Shown piece after piece: positions 3,792 through 40,394 of a stretch of DNA of 41,593 bases (position 1 is the first letter of the stretch; every line of letters starts with the position of its first letter). This DNA comes from Vulcanimicrobiota bacterium (lineage in GTDB: Bacteria > Vulcanimicrobiota > SpSt-956 > JAKJGF01), in assembly GCA_036746235.1 (NCBI GenBank), contig DAIOEN010000040.1, positions 1-41,593 on the forward strand, in the 5' to 3' direction. A program made the position numbers and the translations under genes. Below the pieces are notes generated by a model. That model worked only from the letters and a program-made list of their open reading frames with translations. It ran no database searches and was not told the DNA's origin.

Positions 3792-5783
3792 CTAATTTTC
3801 ACCTAATTTGCCTGACATATAGGCCTGTATCTCTGACAATATAGTAGATCTCCAGTAATAACCGAGTGCTTCAATCTGTTCTTCAGAATTTCCCTGTCTT
3901 AAAAGAGATGCATTTTCATAATAACATATTGGCAGAACAGAATTTTCTTCTCCATTAAGCTGTATAAGAGACAGAGCCCTTTTATCCGCAAAGTTCAACA
4001 TATTTGCAAGAGCTCTTTCGTTCTTTATAGATACAACCTGTGTATAGTTTTTATCAAACTGGGGATCAAGGGAATAAAATTTTGCTATTAACTGTGCAGA
4101 TAATGTATAGGTAGACGAAGCTTCTCCTATAATCATAGGGGCAGATTCAGCCGTTTCCGAAAATTCCTTTTTCATTAATTCAACACCATAGGTACTTGCA
4201 AATGCCATCATATATCTGTTATCAAGCTTCATAAAATTATATTTCATAACATCCGAATGGACACCTGCAGATTTTGCATATTCATCTACAATAGTGCTTT
4301 CAAAATAAGACATATTTGCCTTTGCCGCTCCTGCCATTATTTCTCCCAGTTTTACAAGGTCATCATTATTTACAGTGGCAGGGCTTCCGAAATCTTTGGC
4401 AATATCGAGACAATCCTTTGCAATGGTAAGTAAAGCGCTGGCACAGCAATAATAATACCCTACATAATACAGTTCTTCCATAAGCTGAGATTCGTCATAA
4501 GAACTGATATTTTTCTGTATTGTACTGATTTTATCATCTGCAAGCAGAATGAATCCTTCTGCCATTGTGAGTTTACTGTAGGCTTCGAATAATGCCACAT
4601 AATCACTGGTAGATTCAACATCTTCTGCTTTAAGATTATCCATAGCCGCACTTAACTCGGTTTTAACAGATTCCTTGCTTTCAAGATAGGATATGGCACC
4701 GTCAAAACCGCTGTTCTGATAGCGCTGTATCATATTCATGGCAAGCACTATGGCATCCATTTGAACTGTAGCGCCTGTTGCCCTGTCATAGGCTACACTG
4801 GCCATACCCTGTGAAAGGGCATTATCGGCTTTCTGAGCCAGCTGATCAACCATACCGGCAAAACCGCTGAAATAGGTCTGATAGTCTTTAGGAAAAGATT
4901 TATACTCACCTTTTAACTTTTTGTATCTGCTGTACCATTCCTTTGCTCTTCCTTTAAATCTGTCGAAGGCTTTTGACGGCAGTTGAGGAGGCGTATCGGA
5001 AACTTCCATTTGAGGGAGACTGTCTCCTGTAAGAAGTTTATATGCTTCATATACATTGGAAACTTCCTTTACTTCCAGACCGAGTTTCTTCCCTTTCTCT
5101 ATTACATCGACAGATGCTTTTGTAGCCATATCAACTGAATATCTCTGTCCTGCAGGAATAAGAACAAGGGTTTTTCCTTTTTTCTGAGCACCGTAAAGTT
5201 TCTGAGGTATACCTCCTACAGGGCCTATTGTGCCATCAGGATTAATGGTTCCTGTCATAGTGGCATCTTCTCTTACCTGCTGCCCGCGGAGAGCGGCAAG
5301 AGTACCTACTGTCATAAGACAGCCGGCACTGGGGCCGTCAATTCTGCCTCCTGTATCGAAAGAAAATTCATAATCTGTGGCATCTTTACCAAGGAGCATG
5401 TTTGCAAGGACGACTGCCATCCAGCCCGATGAGCGCCACATATCCCCTGTTCCTCCCGCTTCACTTTCACCGAAGGAAACCTTCATCTTTTCACTGGTTT
5501 TCTTCTCTGCTTTTATTACAACCTCGCTGGAACCTCCGCTGGGAGGATCTCCGCCTAAATAATAAAGAGCATCTATTTTTACCTCTTTTTCTTCCCCTGT
5601 GTCGGGAATTGCCGGTGTTACTTCACCGGCGGAAGGGGTTTTTTGAGCTACATCCGTTCCGGGAGTCACATTACCTGATGGGGTCTGCTGTAGTAATTTA
5701 TTGCATGGAGGACAGCAGCAGGAAGAAAATAGTAGTATAGAAATAATTACTGAAATTGCAAGTATCCCTGTTGTTTTTTTCAT
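3792..5783 (-). CDS. Lipoprotein with N-terminal Lon-like S16 serine peptidase domain and long C-terminal helical domain
   Basis: Lipobox signal (MKKTTGILAISVIISILLFSSC); Lon proteolytic-domain signatures (RIDGPSAG, MTGTINPDGTIGPVGGIPQKL, KTLVLIP); no AAA+ module; AAGGAGG SD. Confidence 0.75.
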   Translation of the reverse strand: MKKTTGILAISVIISILLFSSCCCPPCNKLLQQTPSGNVTPGTDVAQKTPSAGEVTPAIPDTGEEKEVKIDALYYLGGDPPSGGSSEVVIKAEKKTSEKMKVSFGESEAGGTGDMWRSSGWMAVVLANMLLGKDATDYEFSFDTGGRIDGPSAGCLMTVGTLAALRGQQVREDATMTGTINPDGTIGPVGGIPQKLYGAQKKGKTLVLIPAGQRYSVDMATKASVDVIEKGKKLGLEVKEVSNVYEAYKLLTGDSLPQMEVSDTPPQLPSKAFDRFKGRAKEWYSRYKKLKGEYKSFPKDYQTYFSGFAGMVDQLAQKADNALSQGMASVAYDRATGATVQMDAIVLAMNMIQRYQNSGFDGAISYLESKESVKTELSAAMDNLKAEDVESTSDYVALFEAYSKLTMAEGFILLADDKISTIQKNISSYDESQLMEELYYVGYYYCCASALLTIAKDCLDIAKDFGSPATVNNDDLVKLGEIMAGAAKANMSYFESTIVDEYAKSAGVHSDVMKYNFMKLDNRYMMAFASTYGVELMKKEFSETAESAPMIIGEASSTYTLSAQLIAKFYSLDPQFDKNYTQVVSIKNERALANMLNFADKRALSLIQLNGEENSVLPICYYENASLLRQGNSEEQIEALGYYWRSTILSEIQAYMSGKLGEN

Positions 5784-5806: not shown

Positions 5807-5839
5807 CGTTACGCGTTACGCGTTACGCGTTACGCGAGG
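5807..5839. repeat. Tandem heptamer array (CGTTACG)x4 ending in CGAGGC, in the 5' leader of the S16 lipoprotein gene
   Basis: Four perfect 7-bp units, directly visible; 23 nt from the start codon and adjacent to the SD. Confidence 0.9.
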
Positions 5840-6443: not shown

Positions 6444-6462
6444 TACAGCTGACTCCTTAAAT

Positions 6463-6495
6463 CGTAACGCGTGACGCGTGACGCGTGGCGCGAGG
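6463..6495. repeat. Tandem heptamers CGTAACG-CGTGACG-CGTGACG-CGTGGCG ending in CGAGG
   Basis: Direct reading; same family and same terminal CGCGAGG as 5807-5839 and 20928-20952. Confidence 0.85.
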
Positions 6496-6575
6496 ATCGT
6501 TTATTATGAACAAAAATATAATATTGATTTATTCTATAAATATAAAAAAAATCCTACATAAGAGTTATCTTTACA

Positions 6576-6603
6576 GTGAACAGTTACCAGTGAACAGTTA
6601 CCA
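6576..6603. repeat. 14-bp perfect direct repeat x2 (GTGAACAGTTACCA) upstream of the HD-domain gene
   Basis: gtgaacagttacca gtgaacagttacca, about 140 bp upstream of the 6745 start; possible operator. Confidence 0.55.
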
Positions 6604-6744
6604 GGGAATGTATAAAATTACGTTTCACGTGTCATGTCCAACGCATCACGCATTACGCGTCATCCATCGCCCGCCACGCCGGTACAGTGTCATAAAAAAT
6701 TAAAAATGCAGGAAATTCAGGAGAAATTTAGAAATCTATTTATT

Positions 6745-8067
6745 ATGAAACAAAAAGTTATCAATGATCCTGTTCATGGATTTATACTTATAGATCCTCC
6801 GTTAATTCTGGAATTAATGGACAGCTATACCTTTCAGAGACTCAGAAGGATAAGACAGTTAGGAACTACCTTTATTACATATCCCGGGGCAGAACATACA
6901 AGGTTTGCCCATTCAATAGGTGTTTTTTATCTTGCCACAAAGATAATATCACACCTGTTAAATCTTTCGGGAAATCCTTTTTCTCATTTAAACAGAGAAG
7001 AAAAAGAAAGACTTCACCTGCTGGTTCAGGTAGCAGGTCTGCTCCATGATATAGGCCACGGCCCTCTTTCCCATGTATTTGAACGTATTTCCGGTCTCCC
7101 CCATGAAGAATGGACAAAAAAAATCATACTCGGCGATGAAAATTGTGATGAAATCCATACTATACTTACAGGAAAAAATAATCCTTTCGGTACAGATTTT
7201 CCTTCAGATCTTCTGGCAATACTCAATAATAAGTATATAGATCCGAAGGAAGGATACCTGTCATGTGTAAATCCCATCATATCAAGCCAGTTAGATGCAG
7301 ACAGACTCGATTATCTTCAGAGAGATGCCTACTATACGGGAGTAAGATCGGGTTTTATAGATGCAGACAGGATAATCTATACACTTGATCTTTATAAATC
7401 GGAAGAAGACGGCAAAATAAAAGAAAAAATCGTAGTATGGGATAAAAGCTTTTATAATGTGGAAGAATATATTTTTTCCAGATATTATATGTACTGGAAG
7501 GTCTATCACCACAGGACTACAAGATTTTTCGATTTGCTCTTTATGAATATAGTAAAAAGACTTAAAGAGAGTAAAGAACCTGATGATTTAAATATTGCCT
7601 CTAAAAATCTTTTAAACATACTCATAAAACCTTCTCCGTCTCTCCAGGACTGGCTTATGCTTGACGAATCCGATTTACTTTATTCAATCAAAATGTGGGC
7701 TTTCAACGGTAAGGATGCAATACTGAAAGATCTATGCGAAAGATTCATAAAAAGAAAGGTTTTTAAATCTATTCCCGATTCTTTTATAGTGAATGAAGAA
7801 AAAATAGAAGAAGTAAAATCTTTCCTTCTCGGGAAAGGTCTATCACCTGAATATTATTTCCTTCAGGATACGGCGTCTAAAGTGGCATATGATTTTTATA
7901 CGGAAGAACATGAACGTATCTATATAATGGACAAATATACCCATAAACCATGCCCCATATCAGACTTATCCGATAAAGTAAGAACACTGGCAAAGAAAAA
8001 TATAGAAAAAAGATTCTATGTACATCCCGATTTTCATGAACATATTCTTAAAATCTTAAAAGTTTAA
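6745..8067 (+). CDS. HD-domain phosphohydrolase of the dNTP triphosphohydrolase (dGTPase/SAMHD1-like) family
   Basis: HD motif LLHDIGHGPLSH, metal-binding H in FAHSIGV, and the characteristic DADRLDYLQRD motif. The ORF is open from 6634, but MKQKVINDPVHGF at 6745 is the likely start; the upstream part translates through repeat DNA. Confidence 0.75.
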   Translation: MKQKVINDPVHGFILIDPPLILELMDSYTFQRLRRIRQLGTTFITYPGAEHTRFAHSIGVFYLATKIISHLLNLSGNPFSHLNREEKERLHLLVQVAGLLHDIGHGPLSHVFERISGLPHEEWTKKIILGDENCDEIHTILTGKNNPFGTDFPSDLLAILNNKYIDPKEGYLSCVNPIISSQLDADRLDYLQRDAYYTGVRSGFIDADRIIYTLDLYKSEEDGKIKEKIVVWDKSFYNVEEYIFSRYYMYWKVYHHRTTRFFDLLFMNIVKRLKESKEPDDLNIASKNLLNILIKPSPSLQDWLMLDESDLLYSIKMWAFNGKDAILKDLCERFIKRKVFKSIPDSFIVNEEKIEEVKSFLLGKGLSPEYYFLQDTASKVAYDFYTEEHERIYIMDKYTHKPCPISDLSDKVRTLAKKNIEKRFYVHPDFHEHILKILKV

Positions 8068-8173
8068 AATTACCGGAGTGTAAACCTGTGTTAGAGCCTT
8101 ATAGAAACAAAAGATCTTACAATTTCGTTAAAAACCCTCGCGTCACGTGTGACGCGTCACGGGTCACGATTTT

Positions 8174-10504
8174 ATGAAACAAATAATTACAGGTGTCCAC
8201 ACATTACTGGATCTCATATTCAGAGAAAAAGACCTTTCTCTGTCAATAATGTCACAGACAAGGCTTACAGAAGGTATAGCAGGCCATATAGAAGTTCAGT
8301 CTTCAAGACCGGCACACTATGAAGCAGAAGTTCCTGTTCAATTCAGCTATATGGATGAACCATATGAAGTTATTGTAAGAGGACGTATTGACGGCATATA
8401 CAGATATGAAGATACCCTGAAGATTGAAGAAATAAAAACTACCTACATGGAGCTTGAAGCATTAAGGGCCGGTATTCATCCCTATTATGAAGCACAGCTT
8501 AAACTCTATATGTATTTCCTCAAAGAACAGAATAAAGATAAAAAGATTGAAGGAGTGCTAACATACTATTCATTGCAGACAGGTCAGACAAGGGAATTTA
8601 ATATAGATTTCAATGAAAAAGATTTCAGAGATTTTTTTGAATATCTTGCGAAAACCATTATAGATATAAAAAGAAAAGAAGATGAATGGAAGGAATTAAG
8701 AGATAATTCCATCCAGGAATTGACATTTCCCTTTGACATACTGAGAAAAGGCCAGAAGGAACTGGGAGAGAAAATTTCACAGATTATAGAAGAAGGGAAA
8801 AACCTTCTACTGGAAGCACCTACAGGGACAGGGAAAACTGTGGCAATACTGTTTCCTTCCATAAAACATCTACATTCATGTCTTTATGAGAAAATTTTTT
8901 TTCTCACTGCAAAGACTCCGGGACAGAATATAGTAAGGGAAACACTTCAGATATTTAAAGAAAAAGGACTTCATATGAGAAGCGTTTTTTTAAATGCAAA
9001 AGAAAAGATGTGTTTCATGGGTGATTGTAACTGTGATCCTTCCCTGTGTAAATACGCAGAGAGATATTATGAAAAACTTCCATCTGCCATCGAAGATATA
9101 ATGAAAGATGAAATTTTTACAAGAGAAAAAATTATTTCCCTATCAGAAACATTTAAGATATGTCCTTTTGAATTCTCTCTTGATCTGTCACTTTACTGTG
9201 ACATGATAGTCTGTGATTATAATTATGTCTTTGACCCTGCCGTATATTTAAGAAGATATTTTCTCGGGGGAAAAGAGAAATATCTGTTTCTCATAGATGA
9301 AGCCCATAATCTGGTAAACAGAGGAAGGGATATGTATTCTGCCTCTATAGATAAAAAGACAATACTCAATCTTAAAAGAGAAATGAAAAATAAAGACAAG
9401 AAATTATATAAATTCTTTGATGATATGAATAAACAGTTTATTTCGTGGAATAAAGAATTAAAAGAAGATAAAAAATCCATCCTTCTCTTAAATGACATAC
9501 CTGAATGTTTTAATATATGGAAAGAAGATTTTTTCAGCATGTCAGATGAATTTTTCGGTAGTAATAACCAGTCTCTGGAGCTAAAAAATTTTTATTATGA
9601 CTTTCAGCATTTTAAGAGAATAATGGATCTTTCTTCGGAAGATCACAGAATTTTTATAAAAACCGGACATCAAACTCTATTCTGGAAAATATTCTGCCTC
9701 AATCCCGGAAAAGAACTGGCAAAAAGATTTAAAAAAAGTCATGCTTCTATTTTATTTTCAGGTACTCTCACGCCGCCGGAATATTTCAGAGATCATACGG
9801 GTTTAAAAGAAGAAACTGAATATTTAAGCCTTCCCTCTCCTTTTCCGCCAGAGAATTCACTCTATCTCCATATCCCCGGTATTTCCACTACCTATAAAAG
9901 AAGAGAGGAATTCTATGAGAAGATTGCGGAACACATAAAAAGAATTATTTCGGTAAAAAAAGGAATTTATCTGTGCTTTTTTCCTTCCTATAAATTTCTG
10001 GACGAAGTTCTGGCAAGGTTTAATTTACCGGAAGACTGCTATATATTTATACAGTCAAAAAATATGACAGAAGCTGAAAGGGATGAATTTTTAAAAAATT
10101 TCATTCCTTCTGAAAAAACAAAAGTGGGATTTGTAGTCATGGGAGGCCTTTTCGGAGAAGGCATAGATCTTCCGGGAGAAAAACTCATAGGTGCCATTAT
10201 AGTCGGAGTCGGCCTTCCCATGGTAGATGAGGAGCAATCTCTCATAAGCGACTATTTCGAAGAAAAAGAAAAAGGCAGAGGTTTTCTTTACAGTTATATG
10301 ATCCCTGGTATGATAAGGGTCATACAGTCTGCCGGAAGGGTTTACAGGACTCCGTCTGATAAAGGGATTGTAGTGTTAATGGATAACCGGTTCAGACATG
10401 GAGGGTATCTGAAACTTATGCCGAAGCGGTGGTTTACAGAGAAAAGAGCCCTGTCATCGGGAGAATATGAAGGTATTTTAAGGGATTTCTGGCATGGTGA
10501 TTAG
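8174..10504 (+). CDS. Fusion protein: N-terminal PD-(D/E)xK (RecB/Cas4-like) nuclease domain plus SF2 DinG/XPD (Rad3)-family helicase
   Basis: Nuclease motifs GRIDGIY (D), IEEIKT (ExK) and QLKLY (QxxxY) within the first 110 aa. Helicase motifs APTGTGKT (Walker A), FLIDEAHNL (DEAH), GEGIDLPGEKLIGAIIVGVGLP, QSAGRVYRTPSDKG (motif VI). A Cys cluster CFMGDCNCDPSLC sits between motifs I and II where the XPD/DinG FeS domain lies. Confidence 0.8.
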   Translation: MKQIITGVHTLLDLIFREKDLSLSIMSQTRLTEGIAGHIEVQSSRPAHYEAEVPVQFSYMDEPYEVIVRGRIDGIYRYEDTLKIEEIKTTYMELEALRAGIHPYYEAQLKLYMYFLKEQNKDKKIEGVLTYYSLQTGQTREFNIDFNEKDFRDFFEYLAKTIIDIKRKEDEWKELRDNSIQELTFPFDILRKGQKELGEKISQIIEEGKNLLLEAPTGTGKTVAILFPSIKHLHSCLYEKIFFLTAKTPGQNIVRETLQIFKEKGLHMRSVFLNAKEKMCFMGDCNCDPSLCKYAERYYEKLPSAIEDIMKDEIFTREKIISLSETFKICPFEFSLDLSLYCDMIVCDYNYVFDPAVYLRRYFLGGKEKYLFLIDEAHNLVNRGRDMYSASIDKKTILNLKREMKNKDKKLYKFFDDMNKQFISWNKELKEDKKSILLLNDIPECFNIWKEDFFSMSDEFFGSNNQSLELKNFYYDFQHFKRIMDLSSEDHRIFIKTGHQTLFWKIFCLNPGKELAKRFKKSHASILFSGTLTPPEYFRDHTGLKEETEYLSLPSPFPPENSLYLHIPGISTTYKRREEFYEKIAEHIKRIISVKKGIYLCFFPSYKFLDEVLARFNLPEDCYIFIQSKNMTEAERDEFLKNFIPSEKTKVGFVVMGGLFGEGIDLPGEKLIGAIIVGVGLPMVDEEQSLISDYFEEKEKGRGFLYSYMIPGMIRVIQSAGRVYRTPSDKGIVVLMDNRFRHGGYLKLMPKRWFTEKRALSSGEYEGILRDFWHGD

Positions 10505-10581: not shown

Positions 10582-11208
10582 TTGTTTCTTACTCTGAGAG
10601 AATCGGCTTTAACAGAAGAATTTGATTACAATTTTATCAAGTATGCCCTTCGTGAATACAAACATCCCCGTGTAAAGATAAATGATCTTCTGAAAAAAAG
10701 TGAAATTATCCGTGTAAAAAAGGGACTTTACATATTTGGCGAAAAACTGGCACGAGAACCTTACTCAAAGGAGACTCTGGCAAATTTGATATATGGCCCG
10801 TCTTATATTTCTCTTGAATATGCTCTTTCTTTTTATGGTCTCTTCCCCGAGCATGTAGAAACTGTTACCAGTATAACAAATAAGAGAAAAAAATTTTTTC
10901 ACACACCGGTGGGAGATTTTTCCTACACATATATACCTCCTTCTATGTATCCATGGGGTATAACTCTTTATAATATAGATAAATATCATTCTATTTTAAT
11001 CGCTACAAAGGAAAAGGCTATTGCAGATATATTATATCTTTCTGACGATACTATCGATGAAGATGAAATAAAAACATATCTTTTTGAAGATATGAGACTG
11101 GACATAGAAGATTTTAGAAAATTTAATCTAAGAAAGCTAAAAAAACTAAGTGAGCTCTATGGAGATAAGGTAAAATCTTTATATAAATTTCTGGAGAAAG
11201 TAAAATGA
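10582..11208 (+). CDS. AbiEi-family antitoxin/transcriptional regulator (type IV TA / abortive infection)
   Basis: Two-domain 208-aa protein resembling AbiEi; its stop overlaps the start of the downstream AbiEii-like gene by 4 nt (ATGA). TTG start with GGAGG SD. Confidence 0.65.
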   Translation: MFLTLRESALTEEFDYNFIKYALREYKHPRVKINDLLKKSEIIRVKKGLYIFGEKLAREPYSKETLANLIYGPSYISLEYALSFYGLFPEHVETVTSITNKRKKFFHTPVGDFSYTYIPPSMYPWGITLYNIDKYHSILIATKEKAIADILYLSDDTIDEDEIKTYLFEDMRLDIEDFRKFNLRKLKKLSELYGDKVKSLYKFLEKVK

Positions 11209-12074
11209 ATGAAGCAGTCAAAATAATGCTTGCCCGTTACAGATGTAACAGTATAAATGATTATGAAAATGCTCTGAAGGAGATTATTCAGGAGATAGCA
11301 CTCCTGGGACTGTGGCGTTCAAAATTTTTTGAAAAAGCTGCTTTTTACGGAGGTTCTGCATTAAGAATTTTATATGGTCTGGAAAGGTTTTCTGAAGATC
11401 TGGATTTTACACTTTTAGAAAAAGATGAAACTTTTTGTTTTGAACATTACTGCAGGGCAGTTCAGGATGAATTGAATGGTTTTGGATTTTCTGTAACAGT
11501 TGAAAAGAAAGAGAAAAAGATTGACTCAAATATCAGTTCTGCTTTTATAAAGGCAGGAACGGTCAGGAATATGATTATTATCGATATGCAGACATCGGTT
11601 ATAAAAAAGATACATAGAGAAAAGACTATGAAAATAAAGCTGGAAGTCGATATAGATCCTCCAGGCGACTTTCTTACAGAAGTAAAGTACCTGTTTCAGC
11701 CTGTAGCTTTTTCTGTTAACACCTGCAGTTTACCCCATCTTTTTGCCGGGAAAATGCATGCCATTCTCTGCAGGTCCTGGGGGAAAAGAGTAAAAGGAAG
11801 AGACTGGTATGACCTTGTATGGTATATGGGAAGAGATATACCTGTCGGGTTGAAACATCTGGAAAACAGGATGAAACAAACAGGACATCTCAAAGAAAAA
11901 GAGGTGCTTACAGAAGAAATTCTGAAGGAAAAACTCCTGGAAAGGATTAAAACTGTAGACTTCAATAATGCCAGAAAAGATGTGGTTAATCTCCTGAAAG
12001 ACCCTTCTTCTCTGACCCTCTGGTCAGAGGAGTTTTTCAGTTTTATCTGTAAAAAAATCAGGACTGTTCAATAA
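11205..12074 (+). CDS. AbiEii/AbiGii-family nucleotidyltransferase toxin (DUF1814-like)
   Basis: FYGGSALRILYGLERFSEDLDFTL matches the hallmark GGTAL...R.S.DLDF nucleotidyltransferase motif of AbiEii; translationally coupled to AbiEi. Confidence 0.8.
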   Translation: MNEAVKIMLARYRCNSINDYENALKEIIQEIALLGLWRSKFFEKAAFYGGSALRILYGLERFSEDLDFTLLEKDETFCFEHYCRAVQDELNGFGFSVTVEKKEKKIDSNISSAFIKAGTVRNMIIIDMQTSVIKKIHREKTMKIKLEVDIDPPGDFLTEVKYLFQPVAFSVNTCSLPHLFAGKMHAILCRSWGKRVKGRDWYDLVWYMGRDIPVGLKHLENRMKQTGHLKEKEVLTEEILKEKLLERIKTVDFNNARKDVVNLLKDPSSLTLWSEEFFSFICKKIRTVQ

Positions 12075-12509: not shown

Positions 12510-13895
12510 TCAATATCCATAAGACCATGACCAGGTAATATTATTATTATCTATTCCATCAATAATCTTTGTTCCGGGAAGTTTTCCCAGAGCTTCATCA
12601 TAGTGAGTGCTTACTTTAGCACCATTTAAAGTAACAGTTTTACCTACAAATGAGCCCCATAAATCAGAATTGCTATTACCCATACCATGTAATGTAATAT
12701 TTGCATTAGGAGCATAAATAGCTCCGCATAAACTTCCTGCGCCTCCAAGGTTGACTTCAGTACAGGTACTGGTCCCATAAATCATCAGATGAGAAGCAGA
12801 AGCGAGAGGTGTAGTAACAGCATTTCTACCATTACCATTACCGGTTGTTATAGTATTAATATTAGCCTGCCCACTAAGGTTAATGGAACCGGTAACATAA
12901 ATAGTTACATTTCCATTAACCTTGAGACTGGTTTCTGCATTACCGCCGCCGGTGAGAGTTAAATTCTCAAATATATAAACCCCTTCATTCAGAGTTGTAG
13001 TGTTGTTACCACTTATACTGAGATTTCTGTATGCGCCACCACCGGACAGAGTAGAACCTGCATTAACATCAACAGTGCCTGCAACTTTATTAGGAACAGG
13101 AGGTAAGTCGAATGGCTCAGCAAGAGGAGTATAATTCTGTGCCGGCAACGTTACCTGTATACCATTTGGATCACGATAGGTTCCGCTTCCTGAAACATCT
13201 ACTCCTGATGGTACTTTTATCTGGCCATTTATATTCCTTCCTCCAAGAGCTAACGTATTTGGATCTGAAGAAAGACCACTATTAACTCCGATATCACCAT
13301 GACTGCCACCGGAATAAACATTCGGGTTAACAGAAGAATCATAACTATCACTCAGAAAACCCTGGCCTGCATTACCGCTCGTGTCAATCCCTTCATCAGC
13401 AAAAATTGAATATTGAAAAGGATTGGAATCTTTTATAAGTGCAGTCCCTATAGCAATAACCCTTGCTTTGGATTTATAATTTGCAGAACTGACATATCCG
13501 CAGTAACCTGTAGCAACAATTTCAATCTTTCCCGGAGGAATATTCGGTATAGCACCACTTATGGATGGTACAGATGTAGTTCCATTTATATTATTTTTTA
13601 TCTGAACCTCGTAATATCCACGGATTTTCTGGTCTGTAACAGTATAAGTAGTTAAAGGGGTAGGCGGTAATGGTGTATTACAATCAGGGTCCTGTTCCAC
13701 CATGTAAATAGCATAAGAAACACCGGCTTTGGCTGCTTCTACGGCTGTTATACTATAATTTTTCTTTGTTATTACATTTGCCAGAGTCATACCTCTTATA
13801 ACAAGAGCAGTACCCAGAATAGCAATCAAAACAAGGGACATAATCGTAATAGCTATTCCCATACCTTTCTGATTTTTAAATAACTTTTTCAACAT
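12510..13895 (-). CDS. PilX-like type IV pilus minor pilin / pseudopilin (large, Gly/Asn/Thr-rich)
   Basis: N-terminus MLKKLFKNQKGMGIAITIMSLVLIAILGTALVIRGMTLAN is typical of the PilX N-terminal domain; last gene of the minus-strand pilin cluster. Confidence 0.6.
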   Translation of the reverse strand: MLKKLFKNQKGMGIAITIMSLVLIAILGTALVIRGMTLANVITKKNYSITAVEAAKAGVSYAIYMVEQDPDCNTPLPPTPLTTYTVTDQKIRGYYEVQIKNNINGTTSVPSISGAIPNIPPGKIEIVATGYCGYVSSANYKSKARVIAIGTALIKDSNPFQYSIFADEGIDTSGNAGQGFLSDSYDSSVNPNVYSGGSHGDIGVNSGLSSDPNTLALGGRNINGQIKVPSGVDVSGSGTYRDPNGIQVTLPAQNYTPLAEPFDLPPVPNKVAGTVDVNAGSTLSGGGAYRNLSISGNNTTTLNEGVYIFENLTLTGGGNAETSLKVNGNVTIYVTGSINLSGQANINTITTGNGNGRNAVTTPLASASHLMIYGTSTCTEVNLGGAGSLCGAIYAPNANITLHGMGNSNSDLWGSFVGKTVTLNGAKVSTHYDEALGKLPGTKIIDGIDNNNITWSWSYGY

Positions 13896-15161: not shown

Positions 15162-17144
15162 TTATTTTAAATTGGAAGAAATAAATACAAGACTCATGGG
15201 AGTCACAACAGGGCTGGCAATTTTATTAGTATTTTTATTTTCTATATCACACATATAGATATAATTTAAGGCATGGTCAAAGGTAGTTGTGCCGACATAA
15301 AGCTGTTTTCCGTCTTTAGAAAAAGTAAGGCTACATGGTATATTTTGAAATTTCATTTTATCTACAACTTTGTCATCTATAAGTGATATAAGAAGGACTT
15401 CCTGAGGTTTCTGGCACATTACAGCAAGTAATTTCTTATCTTTAGAAAAAGCAATTTTACCGGGGCCATCACCTGTCTCTATTCTGGAAACAACCTGTTT
15501 TTTATCACCGTCTATAACAAGTATCTCATTTTTATCTATTATCGATAAATAGAGTTTATTATTAAGACCGGAATTAATTATATCTACAGGGGTACCATCA
15601 ATCTTTATGGAAGCGAGTAAATTTCCCGTAATTTCCATAACGTCTACAGTCATAGAATCTCTGTTAACTACGAAGAGTTCCTCACCTGTAGAAGAAAAAC
15701 AAACTGAAACAGGACCTTTGCCTCCACTCTTTAATGTAGCTACAGGATTATTATAATCTGTATCTACAAGGGTTATAGTATCTGAAGTTCTGCCGGTTAC
15801 TGCAAGATAATTCTGAACGGGGGAAAAGCTCAATCCCTTCGGATCATTACCTACTTTTATTTGTGTTACTATTTGATTTTTTCCTGAATCAAAACATTCC
15901 AGGAAATCGGAACCGGAAGTTACATAAACATATTTACCATTTCTACTCAAAATTGCATCTCCAGGCAGTTTGTATTTTGTCTTAAGAATTTGCATAGCAT
16001 CAGGTTTCTTTATATTCATTGAAGCTATTCCATTATTACCTATAATTATAATTTTCTCCTCTTTACCTGTTCTTGAAGTGGCAAACATTATAGCGACACC
16101 TATTAAACATAACACAAATATGGCACCAATGGCTATCAGCTGATTCATATGGGCATACCAGATTTTTTTCATATTCCACGAAATAGAGTTACAGATTTCC
16201 TCTATAAAAGATTTCGGCATGGCCTCCATCGTTTTCTCTGTTTCAATCTTCTGCTTCATTTTTATGGTAACAGATCTGCCCTGAGTTGTATCAAAAGAAA
16301 TTTTCTCAAGTAATTCTCTGACTTCGGATATCTTCTGTATTCTTTTATCCTGATTGAATTCTATACATTTAGTAGCAATCTCACCCAGTTCTTTTTTACC
16401 TCTCAGAGGAGAAAAATTAAGGGGATTATTTCTGGGATCTTCCTTTGTTAACATATAATATAATAAAGCTCCCACGCCAAAGATATCAGCCCTGGTATCA
16501 ACAGGCTTTAAGCCATATTGCTCAGGTGCCGAATAGCCGGGAGTTCCCATATATTTATTATGGGAAAATCCTTTATCTAACATTCTTGAAAGTCCGTAAT
16601 CTGTCAGTTTTATGTTACCATCACCGGTAAAAAGTATATTTTCAGGTTTGAGATCATAAAATATGACCGGCCCTCCGGCAGAATAATGGAGAGCAGAAAG
16701 GGCATCACATATCTGAAGAGTCCATTCTTTAATTTTATCAAAAGGTATATCTTCATTATATTCCTTCATAACATCAACAAGGTTTGTTCTTCCTGCATTC
16801 TCACATTCCGTAACAATATAAACCCTGTATTTCAAGAATTCCTTTTCGTCTTCCGTAAAGATATCATATACAGGGCTCAGGTTTTCATGAGTTATATTAA
16901 TAATATGCTTGATTCTGTCTTCAAGAGATTCTATAATTTCTTTTCTGAATTTATCATCAGATATGGAAAATACAAGCTCCCTTATTAATACATTTTTTTC
17001 AGGATTATAAATATCAAATGCTATGTATTTAAGATCATTTTCTTCACCTTCGTTTGATAAAACCTGAATAATTTTATATTTGTCTCCAAGAATAGTGTCT
17101 TTAGATAACCGGGTAGTTTCTCTCATAAGTTTCACCTTTTCCAC
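15162..17144 (-). CDS. Hanks-type Ser/Thr protein kinase with TM segment and C-terminal extracytoplasmic beta-propeller (YVTN/lactonase-like repeats)
   Basis: Catalytic loop YDLKPENILF, DYGLS (DFG-like), GTPGYSAPE; TM helix LIAIGAIFVLCLIGVAIMFA; C-terminal repeats (YVTSGS..., LAVTGRTSD..., LYVGTTT...). Confidence 0.85.
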   Translation of the reverse strand: MEKVKLMRETTRLSKDTILGDKYKIIQVLSNEGEENDLKYIAFDIYNPEKNVLIRELVFSISDDKFRKEIIESLEDRIKHIINITHENLSPVYDIFTEDEKEFLKYRVYIVTECENAGRTNLVDVMKEYNEDIPFDKIKEWTLQICDALSALHYSAGGPVIFYDLKPENILFTGDGNIKLTDYGLSRMLDKGFSHNKYMGTPGYSAPEQYGLKPVDTRADIFGVGALLYYMLTKEDPRNNPLNFSPLRGKKELGEIATKCIEFNQDKRIQKISEVRELLEKISFDTTQGRSVTIKMKQKIETEKTMEAMPKSFIEEICNSISWNMKKIWYAHMNQLIAIGAIFVLCLIGVAIMFATSRTGKEEKIIIIGNNGIASMNIKKPDAMQILKTKYKLPGDAILSRNGKYVYVTSGSDFLECFDSGKNQIVTQIKVGNDPKGLSFSPVQNYLAVTGRTSDTITLVDTDYNNPVATLKSGGKGPVSVCFSSTGEELFVVNRDSMTVDVMEITGNLLASIKIDGTPVDIINSGLNNKLYLSIIDKNEILVIDGDKKQVVSRIETGDGPGKIAFSKDKKLLAVMCQKPQEVLLISLIDDKVVDKMKFQNIPCSLTFSKDGKQLYVGTTTFDHALNYIYMCDIENKNTNKIASPVVTPMSLVFISSNLK

Positions 17145-39700: not shown

Positions 39701-40292
39701 ACTTGACCATGTCCTGGCCTGTAATGAGAATGTAAATGTTCTCGTACTTGATACGGAAGTATATTCCAACACAGGCGGACAATCTTCCAAAGCAACACCT
39801 CTTGCATCGACGGCAAAATTTGCCACAGCAGGAAAGCGTACAGGCAAAAAAGATTTAGGTCTTATGGCAATGGCCTATGGTTATGTATATGTGGCTTCAA
39901 TTTCTATGGGAGCAAACAAAAACCAGACACTCAAGGCATTACTTGAGGCAGAATCCTATAACGGCCCGTCACTTGTTATTGCTTATTCGCCCTGTATCAA
40001 TCATGGCATTAATATGAGTAAACCACAGGAAGAACAGAGAATTGCCGTAGAATGCGGATACTGGCCACTTTACCGTTATGATCCCAGACTTGCCGCAGAG
40101 GGTAAAAATCCTCTTACATTCGAGTCAAAAGAACCAAAAGAAGCTTTCAGCACTTATCTAAAAAATGAAAACAGATACCAGACCCTGAAACGTATCTGCC
40201 CCGGGGAAGCTGACAGTCTCTTTGAAGCAGCAGAAAAAGATGCAAAGCGAAGATATGAATATTATAAAAAGCTTGCAGGGCTGCAGTATTAA
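36762..40292 (+). CDS. nifJ: Pyruvate:ferredoxin (flavodoxin) oxidoreductase, single-polypeptide form
   Basis: 1176 aa; two 4Fe-4S ferredoxin motifs (CIQCNQCSYVCP, CVGCGSCVNTCP); TPP-binding GDGWAYDIGYGGLDH; AGGAG SD. Confidence 0.95.
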   Translation: MVKQKMEPFDGNTAASYVAYAFSEVAAIYPITPSSVMGELADEWAAQGRKNMFEQVLKVVQMQSEGGAAGAVHGSLSAGAMTTTYTASQGLLLMFPNMFKIAGEMLPTVFHVSARSLACQSLSIFGDHSDVMAARGTGFALMAAGSVQETLDLAIVSHLATLKSKVPFVNFFDGFRTSHEIMKIHVPEYKDIKDLLEMDYILEFRDRALRPDKPYAKTGAQNPDVYFQGRETSNKYYEVTPAIVQEYMDKVAEKFGRHYHLFDYIGAKDAEKIIIAMGSGCEAIEECVNYLTKKGEKVGAIKVRLYRPFSVEALKKAIPESVKKIAVLDRTKEPGSIGEPLYLDVKTALSDKNLVIIGGRYGLSSKEFTPTMVKAVYDHLDNECFHDFTVGITDDVTHRSVKIREEISAEQKGIVRCKFWGLGSDGTVSANKNSIKIICDHTDMFGQAYFSYDSKKSGGITVSHLRFGKEPIQSTYLLKEVDFVACHNPAYIGRYDLLEGIVEGGTFLLNSPWKSEEVFDHLTEDLQKTIIDKKLKFYNIDALKIAEEVGLGNRISTVMQAAFFKISGVLDEKEAIDLVKGAIKKTFSKKGENIVKMNWDCVDKTSEALVQVKVPGTITKSAKAPKLIPDDAIAFAHDVIEPIMRLKGDDIPVSKMPLDGYTPTGTTRLEKRGVAPFVPHWIAENCIQCNQCSYVCPHATIRAKQIDPADLKDAPETFNTLKSNTKNTRDLKYKVQIYIEDCVGCGSCVNTCPAKTKALELKLLSEEREKGEAKNAEFFDRLPDNVVDGIDPGTLKGSQFLQPLFEFSGACAGCGETPYVKLVTQLFGDRMIIANATGCSSIYGGTFPTIPYSVTKSGKGPAWANSLFEDNAEYGFGFRLAVNANRKQLAFNVDKLLEIGTTPALEEVLKKGKELWKSVNTEAKDNAEKIKALLPEALKSAKSESLPFIKKVIELQDYFVDKSIWAFGGDGWAYDIGYGGLDHVLACNENVNVLVLDTEVYSNTGGQSSKATPLASTAKFATAGKRTGKKDLGLMAMAYGYVYVASISMGANKNQTLKALLEAESYNGPSLVIAYSPCINHGINMSKPQEEQRIAVECGYWPLYRYDPRLAAEGKNPLTFESKEPKEAFSTYLKNENRYQTLKRICPGEADSLFEAAEKDAKRRYEYYKKLAGLQY

Positions 40293-40388
40293 TCAGTAAT
40301 CAGTAACCAGTGATCAGTGACCAGTAAAATTCATTTACCGGTCACTGGTCACTGGTCACTGGTCACTGGTCACCGGTCACCGGTCACT
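40284..40388. repeat. Inverted heptamer arrays: (CAGTRAY)x6 - 11-nt spacer - (GGTCACY)x7, forming a long imperfect hairpin between PFOR and the dehydratase gene
   Basis: cagtatt..cagtaat cagtaac cagtgat cagtgac cagtaaa | attcatttacc | ggtcact x4 ggtcacc x2 ggtcact. The PFOR stop codon lies within the first unit; the false N-terminal extension of ORF 40317.. (…VTGHWSLVTGH…) comes from this array. Confidence 0.85.
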
Positions 40389-40394
40389 GATATT

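Follow-up and report, generated by a model that had tools for sequence, protein, structure and literature searches.

We have analyzed a 41,593-nt stretch of DNA from a Vulcanimicrobiota bacterium (contig DAIOEN010000040.1, assembly GCA_036746235.1; hereafter the window), with a focus on the plus-strand open reading frame (ORF) at positions 8174-10504, which runs uninterrupted for 776 amino acids (aa). Its product is most probably (we estimate about 0.88) a single-chain helicase-nuclease of the EndoDinG subgroup, with activities like those of the DinG protein of Finegoldia magna (FmaDinG) and a putative role in chromosomal genome maintenance rather than defence.

EndoDinG proteins are, by definition, DinG-like helicases that carry a PD-(D/E)XK nuclease at the N-terminus together with a canonical iron-sulfur (FeS) domain (PMC13650095). 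The subgroup name dates from a 2025 review, which also mentions an unpublished endonuclease activity of the Bdellovibrio bacteriovorus HD100 EndoDinG (section 3.7; PMC11981726). FmaDinG was the first member to be characterized, with a crystal structure (PDB 9KQH) and biochemistry reported by Li et al. (Cell Mol Life Sci, 15 July 2026; PMC13650095).

The ORF encodes a PD-(D/E)XK domain fused to an FeS helicase

The features assigned to the gene, all on the plus strand, were the following:

8174-10504: EndoDinG-family helicase-nuclease gene (ORF, match to PDB 9kqh_A, family profile, AlphaFold2 model)
8174-8728: N-terminal PD-(D/E)XK nuclease domain, aa 1-185
8285-8509: nuclease catalytic core H38, E52, R71, D73, E86, K88, Q108 and Y112 (alignment with FmaDinG, invariance in 25 homologues)
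8729-10504: XPD/DinG-type superfamily 2 (SF2) helicase core, with motor domain 1 (MD1), FeS and Arch domains and motor domain 2 (MD2) (Pfam, TIGR00604, structure matches)
8825-8839: Walker A motif GTGKT, aa 218-222 (G218, G220, K221 and T222 invariant)
9011-9163: FeS-cluster segment with C280, C287, C292 and C330 (aligned to C282, C289, C294 and C333 of FmaDinG)
9296-9307: DEAH box, aa 375-378 (invariant; D375 corresponds to FmaDinG D378)
10325-10348: helicase motif VI QSAGRVYR, aa 718-725 (Q718, G721, R722 and R725 invariant)

Within the protein, the nuclease motifs GRIDGIY, IEEIKT and QLKLY start at aa 70, 84 and 108, and the helicase motifs GTGKT, DEAH and QSAGRVYR at aa 218, 375 and 718. 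The Pfam search placed PDDEXK_1 at aa 41-169 with 34.6 bits (cut-off 22), DEAD_2 at aa 274-396, HBB at aa 481-575 and Helicase_C_2 at aa 588-753; together with DEAD, the helicase domains spanned aa 202-753, all above their cut-offs. The best NCBIfam model was rad3 (TIGR00604), whose 168 bits did not reach the subfamily cut-off of 246.95; membership of XPD/Rad3 sensu stricto was hence rejected and only membership of the superfamily retained. The YoaA and DinG models came next, aligning to the helicase part only and scoring below their curated cut-offs.

The protein corresponds to FmaDinG nearly from end to end

In a sequence search of the PDB, one match stood out, chain 9kqh_A ("DNA 5'-3' helicase"), with an E-value of 2.1e-122 and aa 29-753 of the window protein aligned to residues 31-747 of the chain. 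In the HMMER alignment, 36.1% of 709 columns were identical. When only the first 189 residues served as the query, the same chain was retrieved at E = 5e-10, and the family profile matched it over aa 2-747 at E = 3.2e-223. The AlphaFold2 model, with a predicted local distance difference test score of 88.3, again had 9kqh_A as its top Foldseek match (E = 6.3e-66; template modeling scores of 0.79/0.83), the next-best structures being archaeal and eukaryotic XPD proteins (E = 1e-31 to 1e-26). A disordered "gate" loop is located at aa 20-24.

We have then mapped individual residues between the two proteins from the parsed HMMER alignment and examined their conservation in 25 homologues (39-91% identity, several phyla). 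Alanine mutants of FmaDinG H40, E54, R73, D75, E88 and K90 are each almost nuclease-dead (PMC13650095). These positions correspond to H38, E52, R71, D73, E86 and K88 of the window protein, which, like Q108 and Y112, are all invariant among the homologues. In the helicase part, T219 varies within the otherwise fixed Walker A motif and the DEAH box is fixed throughout, its first residue aligning to the position of the ATPase-dead FmaDinG mutant at D378 (PMC13650095). The 9KQH structure shows FeS density and the FmaDinG C289A/C294A mutant is insoluble (PMC13650095); the four aligned cysteines of the window protein are invariant, unlike C285, which is variable. The DNA-binding residues K249, K278, K280, R578, F698 and R733 of FmaDinG are K247, K276, K278, R577, F704 and R739 in the window protein.

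Judged from its sequence and model, the window protein is an orthodox EndoDinG member, with a predicted nuclease, a predicted helicase, the FeS motif and full-length homology. An earlier note, made from the DNA letters alone, had described the ORF at exactly these coordinates as a RecB-like PD-(D/E)XK nuclease fused N-terminally to an FeS helicase of the XPD/DinG type, with a four-Cys cluster at the XPD position. The motifs that it quoted are all present and in the same order, and the Pfam domains, the 9kqh match, the AlphaFold2 model and the invariant cysteines support the description. The profile searches and the AlphaFold-type model that it had proposed as checks confirmed the domain boundaries and the PD-(D/E)XK fold of the N-terminal domain.

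Proposed mechanism

FmaDinG has been shown to be a 5'-3' helicase and an Mn2+-preferring endonuclease of single-stranded DNA (ssDNA), with ATP-dependent digestion of duplexes (PMC13650095). We assign the same biochemistry to the window protein, with high confidence on grounds of homology, since it keeps the mutationally validated residues and the four FeS cysteines that matter for the steps of the mechanism.

The two RecA-like motor domains, together with the 4Fe-4S and Arch domains, would load onto a 5' ssDNA tail and use ATP to translocate 5'-3', strand separation being aided by the FeS and Arch domains. The displaced 3'-ended strand would enter the N-terminal PD-(D/E)XK domain by way of a gated opening; this domain may cut ssDNA endonucleolytically at a metal site formed by H38, E52, D73 and E86, with K88 and R71 on the substrate. 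By analogy with FmaDinG, the nuclease would prefer Mn2+ and deoxyadenosine or deoxycytidine. Without ATP, few 3' nucleotides would be lost, whereas with ATP digestion would run into the duplex; such deep digestion would depend on ATP because the displaced strand is fed to the nuclease by ATP-driven translocation.

EndoDinG is a large and widely distributed family

A word-indexed search yielded 7,781 significant relatives, which were DinG-like proteins generally. The best 120 of these were almost all of about 780 aa, with 93-100% query coverage and about 40% identity, and many carried precomputed PF12705, PF06733 and PF13307 annotations. They came from Bacillota, Armatimonadota, Bacteroidota, Deltaproteobacteria and Eremiobacterota, the closest being a 91% identical protein from a Candidatus Eremiobacterota metagenome-assembled genome (MAG).

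A profile of the nuclease domain only was compared with 1.84 billion representatives of 50% identity clusters. It matched 2,832 of them at E ≤ 1e-3, 1,850 at E ≤ 1e-10 and 383 at E ≤ 1e-30. Among the best 150 matches, 86 carried the domain N-terminally in a protein of at least 740 aa, and most of the shorter matches resembled contig-truncated fragments. A scan of species-representative genomes found EndoDinG in at least 382 of them. Cultured hosts among the genomes listed were Clostridium, Paraclostridium, Bacillus infantis, Enterococcus, Paenibacillus, Halobacillus, Blautia, Fusicatenibacter and Levilinea, and MAG hosts were Aminicenantes, Latescibacterota, Verrucomicrobia and Desulfobacterales. 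Listeria monocytogenes also has a full-length copy annotated just as "ATP-dependent DNA helicase."

The family is thus large: it has thousands of public members in many phyla and, when clustered at 50% identity, no fewer than 1,850 clusters. Its range extends beyond the orders named in the literature to the Eremiobacterota-like genome studied here, Armatimonadota, Chloroflexota, Latescibacterota, Aminicenantes, Verrucomicrobia and Desulfobacterota.

These results bear on the novelty that the earlier note had claimed. It took the arrangement to be unusual and bacterial DinG proteins to be either nuclease-free or fused to a DnaQ-like domain, and it named a common, already characterized DinG subfamily as the outcome that would speak against it. 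EndoDinG is such a subfamily. The fusion of a PD-(D/E)XK domain to an FeS DinG helicase was already known, with a name since 2025 and a structure and assays since 2026; the claim of novelty fails because the architecture is that of this common and characterized family, and the two-way division of bacterial DinG proteins is out of date.

Points against the EndoDinG and genome-maintenance assignment

Several observations weigh against the proposed reading. The identity to the assayed homologue is only 36%, and the activities are read across to the window protein by homology. Among the Arch residues that contact DNA in FmaDinG, D475, F478 and K482 correspond to N472, Y475 and H479; the change of F478 to Y475 is conservative, and the other two of the three are not conserved. 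Family members differ in these columns (D/E/N, F/Y and A/H/T). FmaDinG R10 is H9 in the window protein, in a column occupied by R, K or H in the family. The PADLOC profile PDLC01439 ("typeIV_DinG, CAS-IV-A associated") matches aa 178-756 with 403 bits, and an AbiE pair lies directly downstream of the helicase gene. Finally, the genome-maintenance part of the reading leans on weak, lineage-specific context.

Clustering the four genes on each side of EndoDinG homologues at 81 loci revealed, within that range, no universal partner and no recurrent neighbor with an evident defence function. The commonest clusters were an 82-aa protein (14 of the 81 loci; position -1 in 12; no NCBIfam match), a LysR-like regulator (nine loci) and a pair matching TIGR03916, a radical-SAM "DNA modification/repair" model (682 bits), and TIGR03915, "putative DNA repair" (183 bits). 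This last pair, also present at nine loci (L054, L061 and seven others of Lachnospiraceae type), sits two to three genes upstream on the same strand. Three further homologue neighborhoods and that of Listeria looked like housekeeping. Overall, the context leans weakly toward chromosomal genome maintenance, and leads for the cellular role come from the housekeeping neighborhoods, the TIGR03916/TIGR03915 linkage in some Clostridia and a deoxynucleoside triphosphate (dNTP) hydrolase partner in Eremiobacterota.

An upstream dNTPase gene is the conserved partner in Eremiobacterota

The gene directly 5' of the helicase was annotated as follows:

6634-8067, plus strand, start probably at ATG 6706: HD-domain gene for an EF1143/SAMHD1-type dNTP triphosphohydrolase (Pfam HD and HD_assoc_2; PDB matches)

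The later start is preferred, as the alignment with relatives begins only near residue 23-35. Its product matched PDB 2o6i at E = 2.5e-61 and SAMHD1 at about 1e-28. The gene precedes the helicase gene on its strand both in the window and at five of five Eremiobacterota relative loci (L001-L004 and L085), whose helicases are 61%, 66% and 91% identical to the window protein. The spacing ranges from a stop/start overlap in L001 and 3 nt in L002 to 106 nt in the window and 413 nt in L085, the locus of the 91% relative.

We have also searched 84 loci by tblastn with the HD, AbiEi, AbiEii, DUF6941 and Lon-like proteins of the window, L085 being outside this set. An HD homologue near the helicase was found only in the Eremiobacterota loci L001-L004 and in none of the 80 genomes of other lineages. 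The HD gene is the only conserved partner of the helicase, in an operon-like arrangement restricted to Eremiobacterota.

Functional coupling of the two proteins is possible. The pair could form a two-gene operon that couples, for example, control of the dNTP pool with the processing of DNA ends or forks, which would amount to an elaboration of the EndoDinG mechanism particular to this lineage and would be compatible with EndoDinG membership and genome maintenance. The kept strand and order, the overlap in L001, the 3-nt gap in L002 and the lack of a terminator-like site on the plus strand of the 106-nt window gap speak for such an operon. We nevertheless regard it as unlikely, since the pairing is missing from the 80 genomes of other lineages, the 413-nt gap of the 91% relative holds an inserted inverted-repeat element, and gene order shared by members of a single phylum can simply have been inherited, with no functional coupling behind it. 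More doubtful still is a stronger version, in which EndoDinG would have been recruited in Eremiobacterota into a translationally coupled module with the dNTPase, the two jointly handling replication stress or foreign DNA. Such a module, if true, would be the first physiological handle on the EndoDinG family.

The element in L085, at 4720-4935, has inverted repeats at its two ends (GAGCCTATCCGAAAAGT ... ACTTTTCGGATAGGCTC) and a further inverted repeat inside (CACCCTCCGGAGGGTGAG / CTCACCCTCCGGAAGG). It resembles a miniature inverted-repeat transposable element and is missing from the window, whose gap is about 300 bp shorter.

The adjacent AbiE pair and the defence question

The feature directly downstream of the helicase, outside the helicase system, was:

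10582-12074, plus strand: adjacent AbiEi/AbiEii toxin-antitoxin pair (PADLOC AbiEi 205 bits, AbiEii 358 bits)

The two genes overlap at 11205-11208 and make up a complete type IV toxin-antitoxin/abortive-infection pair. In the 66% and 61% relatives, the order of response regulator, Lon-like protease, DUF6941, HD and helicase genes is kept and is followed by a P-type ATPase gene, with no AbiE. Among the relatives, AbiE occurs only in the 91% one, where an extra gene sits between it and the helicase, and the tblastn search found AbiEi or AbiEii homologues at none of the 84 loci. The pair therefore appears to be a recent insertion, because the more distant syntenic relatives are without it. The "defence context" of the earlier note amounts to this neighboring pair, confined to the window and its 91% relative, and is not supported; it does not characterize the family.

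The PADLOC scan covered the immediate neighbors of the helicase and ten large ORFs downstream of 19 kb, the other flanking ORFs being compared with Pfam only. Among the immediate neighbors it found, besides the AbiE pair, a weak dGTPase-like match of the HD protein (27.7 bits); in the ten downstream ORFs, no defence model matched. Ten other flanking ORFs look like housekeeping genes by Pfam (two-component regulators, a Lon-like protease, a Ser/Thr kinase), and the window also encodes sigma-54 activators, LepA, PFOR, GlgC and similar housekeeping functions.

Carriage of the family by mobile elements was rejected as well, the phage and plasmid matches being few and mostly host DNA or mislabelled chromosomes. 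A phage collection gave 12 full-length matches, all on unannotated virome contigs named for Listeria, Enterococcus or faecal samples and probably host DNA. A plasmid collection gave 15, mostly on records of chromosome or megaplasmid size; in one that was checked, a 569-kb Listeria "plasmid," the context was housekeeping, and only three Legionella plasmids looked like genuine carriage.

These data make it improbable that the helicase-nuclease is an anti-phage or anti-plasmid effector acting in a defence island with AbiEi/AbiEii, the HD dNTPase or both. Such a role would fit the position of the AbiE pair, the Legionella plasmids and the SAMHD1/dGTPase superfamily of the HD protein, some members of which deplete dNTPs in defence, and defence against mobile elements was left open for FmaDinG (PMC13650095). 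However, AbiE is a self-contained two-gene system that is missing in the 61-66% relatives and in 84 of 84 loci, the HD protein scores 17-20 bits against anti-phage dGTPase models with cut-offs of 383-400, the ten large ORFs downstream of 19 kb have no PADLOC match and the neighborhoods in other phyla are housekeeping, and the phage and plasmid matches are mostly mislabelled host DNA.

The type IV CRISPR label

We give practically no credence to the weakest alternative, a CRISPR type IV accessory helicase (CasDinG/Csf4): the 403-bit PDLC01439 match speaks for it, but neither csf or cas genes nor a CRISPR array were found within the 41.6-kb window, the other typeIV_DinG and Csf4 profiles match only around the Walker A motif, with at most 25 bits, TIGR03117 stays at 16 bits (cut-off 400), and CasDinG structures match the model at E of about 1e-17 and 15% identity, compared with 6e-66 for EndoDinG. 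The FeS module of CasDinG is, in addition, degenerate and devoid of cysteines (PMC13650095), whereas the four cysteines are intact here, and membership of CasDinG/Csf4 was rejected on all these grounds. The PDLC01439 match is best taken as a broad DinG profile cross-matching the protein, rather than as a sign of CRISPR association. This is an annotation trap, in that defence pipelines may mislabel EndoDinG proteins as CRISPR type IV helicases.

Repeats and other features of the window

Upstream of the helicase start codon, a short repeat was annotated:

8139-8166: heptads CGCGTCA CGTGTGA CGCGTCA CGGGTCA, hairpin-capable, 8 nt upstream of the EndoDinG start codon

Instead of these four heptads, the 91% relative has three (L085, 5100-5124). 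The heptads belong to a genome-wide pattern of intergenic heptamer repeats. In the window, tandem heptanucleotide repeats occupy intergenic regions and the 5' ends of genes at 5807-5836, 6462-6490, 6574-6608, 6623-6665, 8139-8166, 31592-31647, 40290-40327 and 40340-40389. The types comprise (CGTTACG)4, CGTGACG runs, (CAGTGAA CAGTTAC)n and (CAGTGAC)7; (GGTCACT)7, the reverse-complement register of the last, lies within the start of ORF 40317. We take these repeats to resemble the short tandemly repeated repetitive (STRR) heptamers of cyanobacteria. Promoter and terminator scans gave site counts at the level of shuffled sequences.

Three further minus-strand genes were recorded. The ORF at 26786-29251 (821 aa) is bacterial major-vault-protein-like (Pfam MVP_shoulder, 101 bits, and Vault_3). 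The 461-aa product of the gene at 12510-13895 contains DUF7305 and a hydrophobic segment near its N-terminus; two small ORFs with no family match come after the gene. At 15162-17144, a Ser/Thr kinase is fused to beta-propeller repeats; L001 has a far larger kinase/WD40 protein (1,712 aa) near its helicase.

Comparison with known systems

The archaeal and eukaryotic XPD (Rad3) proteins and E. coli DinG and YoaA have the SF2 5'-3' FeS core, the four-Cys cluster and the Arch domain in common with the window protein; unlike it, they have no nuclease domain. CasDinG belongs to the same DinG-like helicase superfamily, and one PADLOC profile, PDLC01439, strongly cross-matches the window protein. CasDinG is encoded alongside csf genes and has neither the FeS cysteines nor a PD-(D/E)XK domain; the window protein differs in all three respects.

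ExoDinG proteins, such as the DinG of Staphylococcus aureus and Bacillus, also carry an N-terminal nuclease on a DinG helicase and couple degradation to 5'-3' translocation. Their nuclease is a DnaQ-like DEDD 3'-5' exonuclease of unrelated fold, in contrast to the PD-(D/E)XK endonuclease of EndoDinG. Structures of S. aureus DinG match the model at E of about 1e-19. Membership of ExoDinG was rejected: TIGR01407 and PRK08074 align to aa 464-751 only, with 105-125 bits against 548-789, and the N-terminal domain has the PD-(D/E)XK fold.

The nuclease domain was further compared with the Cas4/RecB-family nucleases Cas4 SSO0001, MGME1, EXO5, RecE, AddA/AddB, AdnAB and the nuclease domain of Dna2. 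The earlier note had called it Cas4/RecB-like, which stood as regards the fold and not as regards Cas4 itself. PF01930 scored 15 bits against a cut-off of 22.7 and TIGR00372 22.8 against 65, residues 1-185 are free of cysteines, and membership of Cas4 was rejected. The domain is Cas4-like in fold only and has no Cas4-type FeS cluster, because the first cysteine of the protein is C236; nor is there a CRISPR association, the cas1/cas2 and CRISPR array setting of Cas4 not being found in the window. The note's further analogy with Dna2 and AddB, that of a helicase coupled to a nuclease with 5'-3' polarity here, is backed by the structure and biochemistry of FmaDinG (PMC13650095). Dna2, AddAB and AdnAB have a similar working logic on a superfamily 1 motor, whereas the motor of the window protein is of the SF2 XPD type, the chassis that the EndoDinG papers describe (PMC11981726, PMC13650095).

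EndoDinG itself, as represented by FmaDinG, is the closest system. The window protein differs from it in the overall identity, in the substituted Arch contacts and in H9, its gene has the lineage-specific dNTPase gene upstream, and its Eremiobacterota-like host phylum lies outside the orders named for the subgroup. The two share the same domain order, from the N-terminal PD-(D/E)XK domain through MD1, with its FeS and Arch inserts, to MD2, and have the catalytic, ATPase and FeS residues all in common along a nearly end-to-end alignment.

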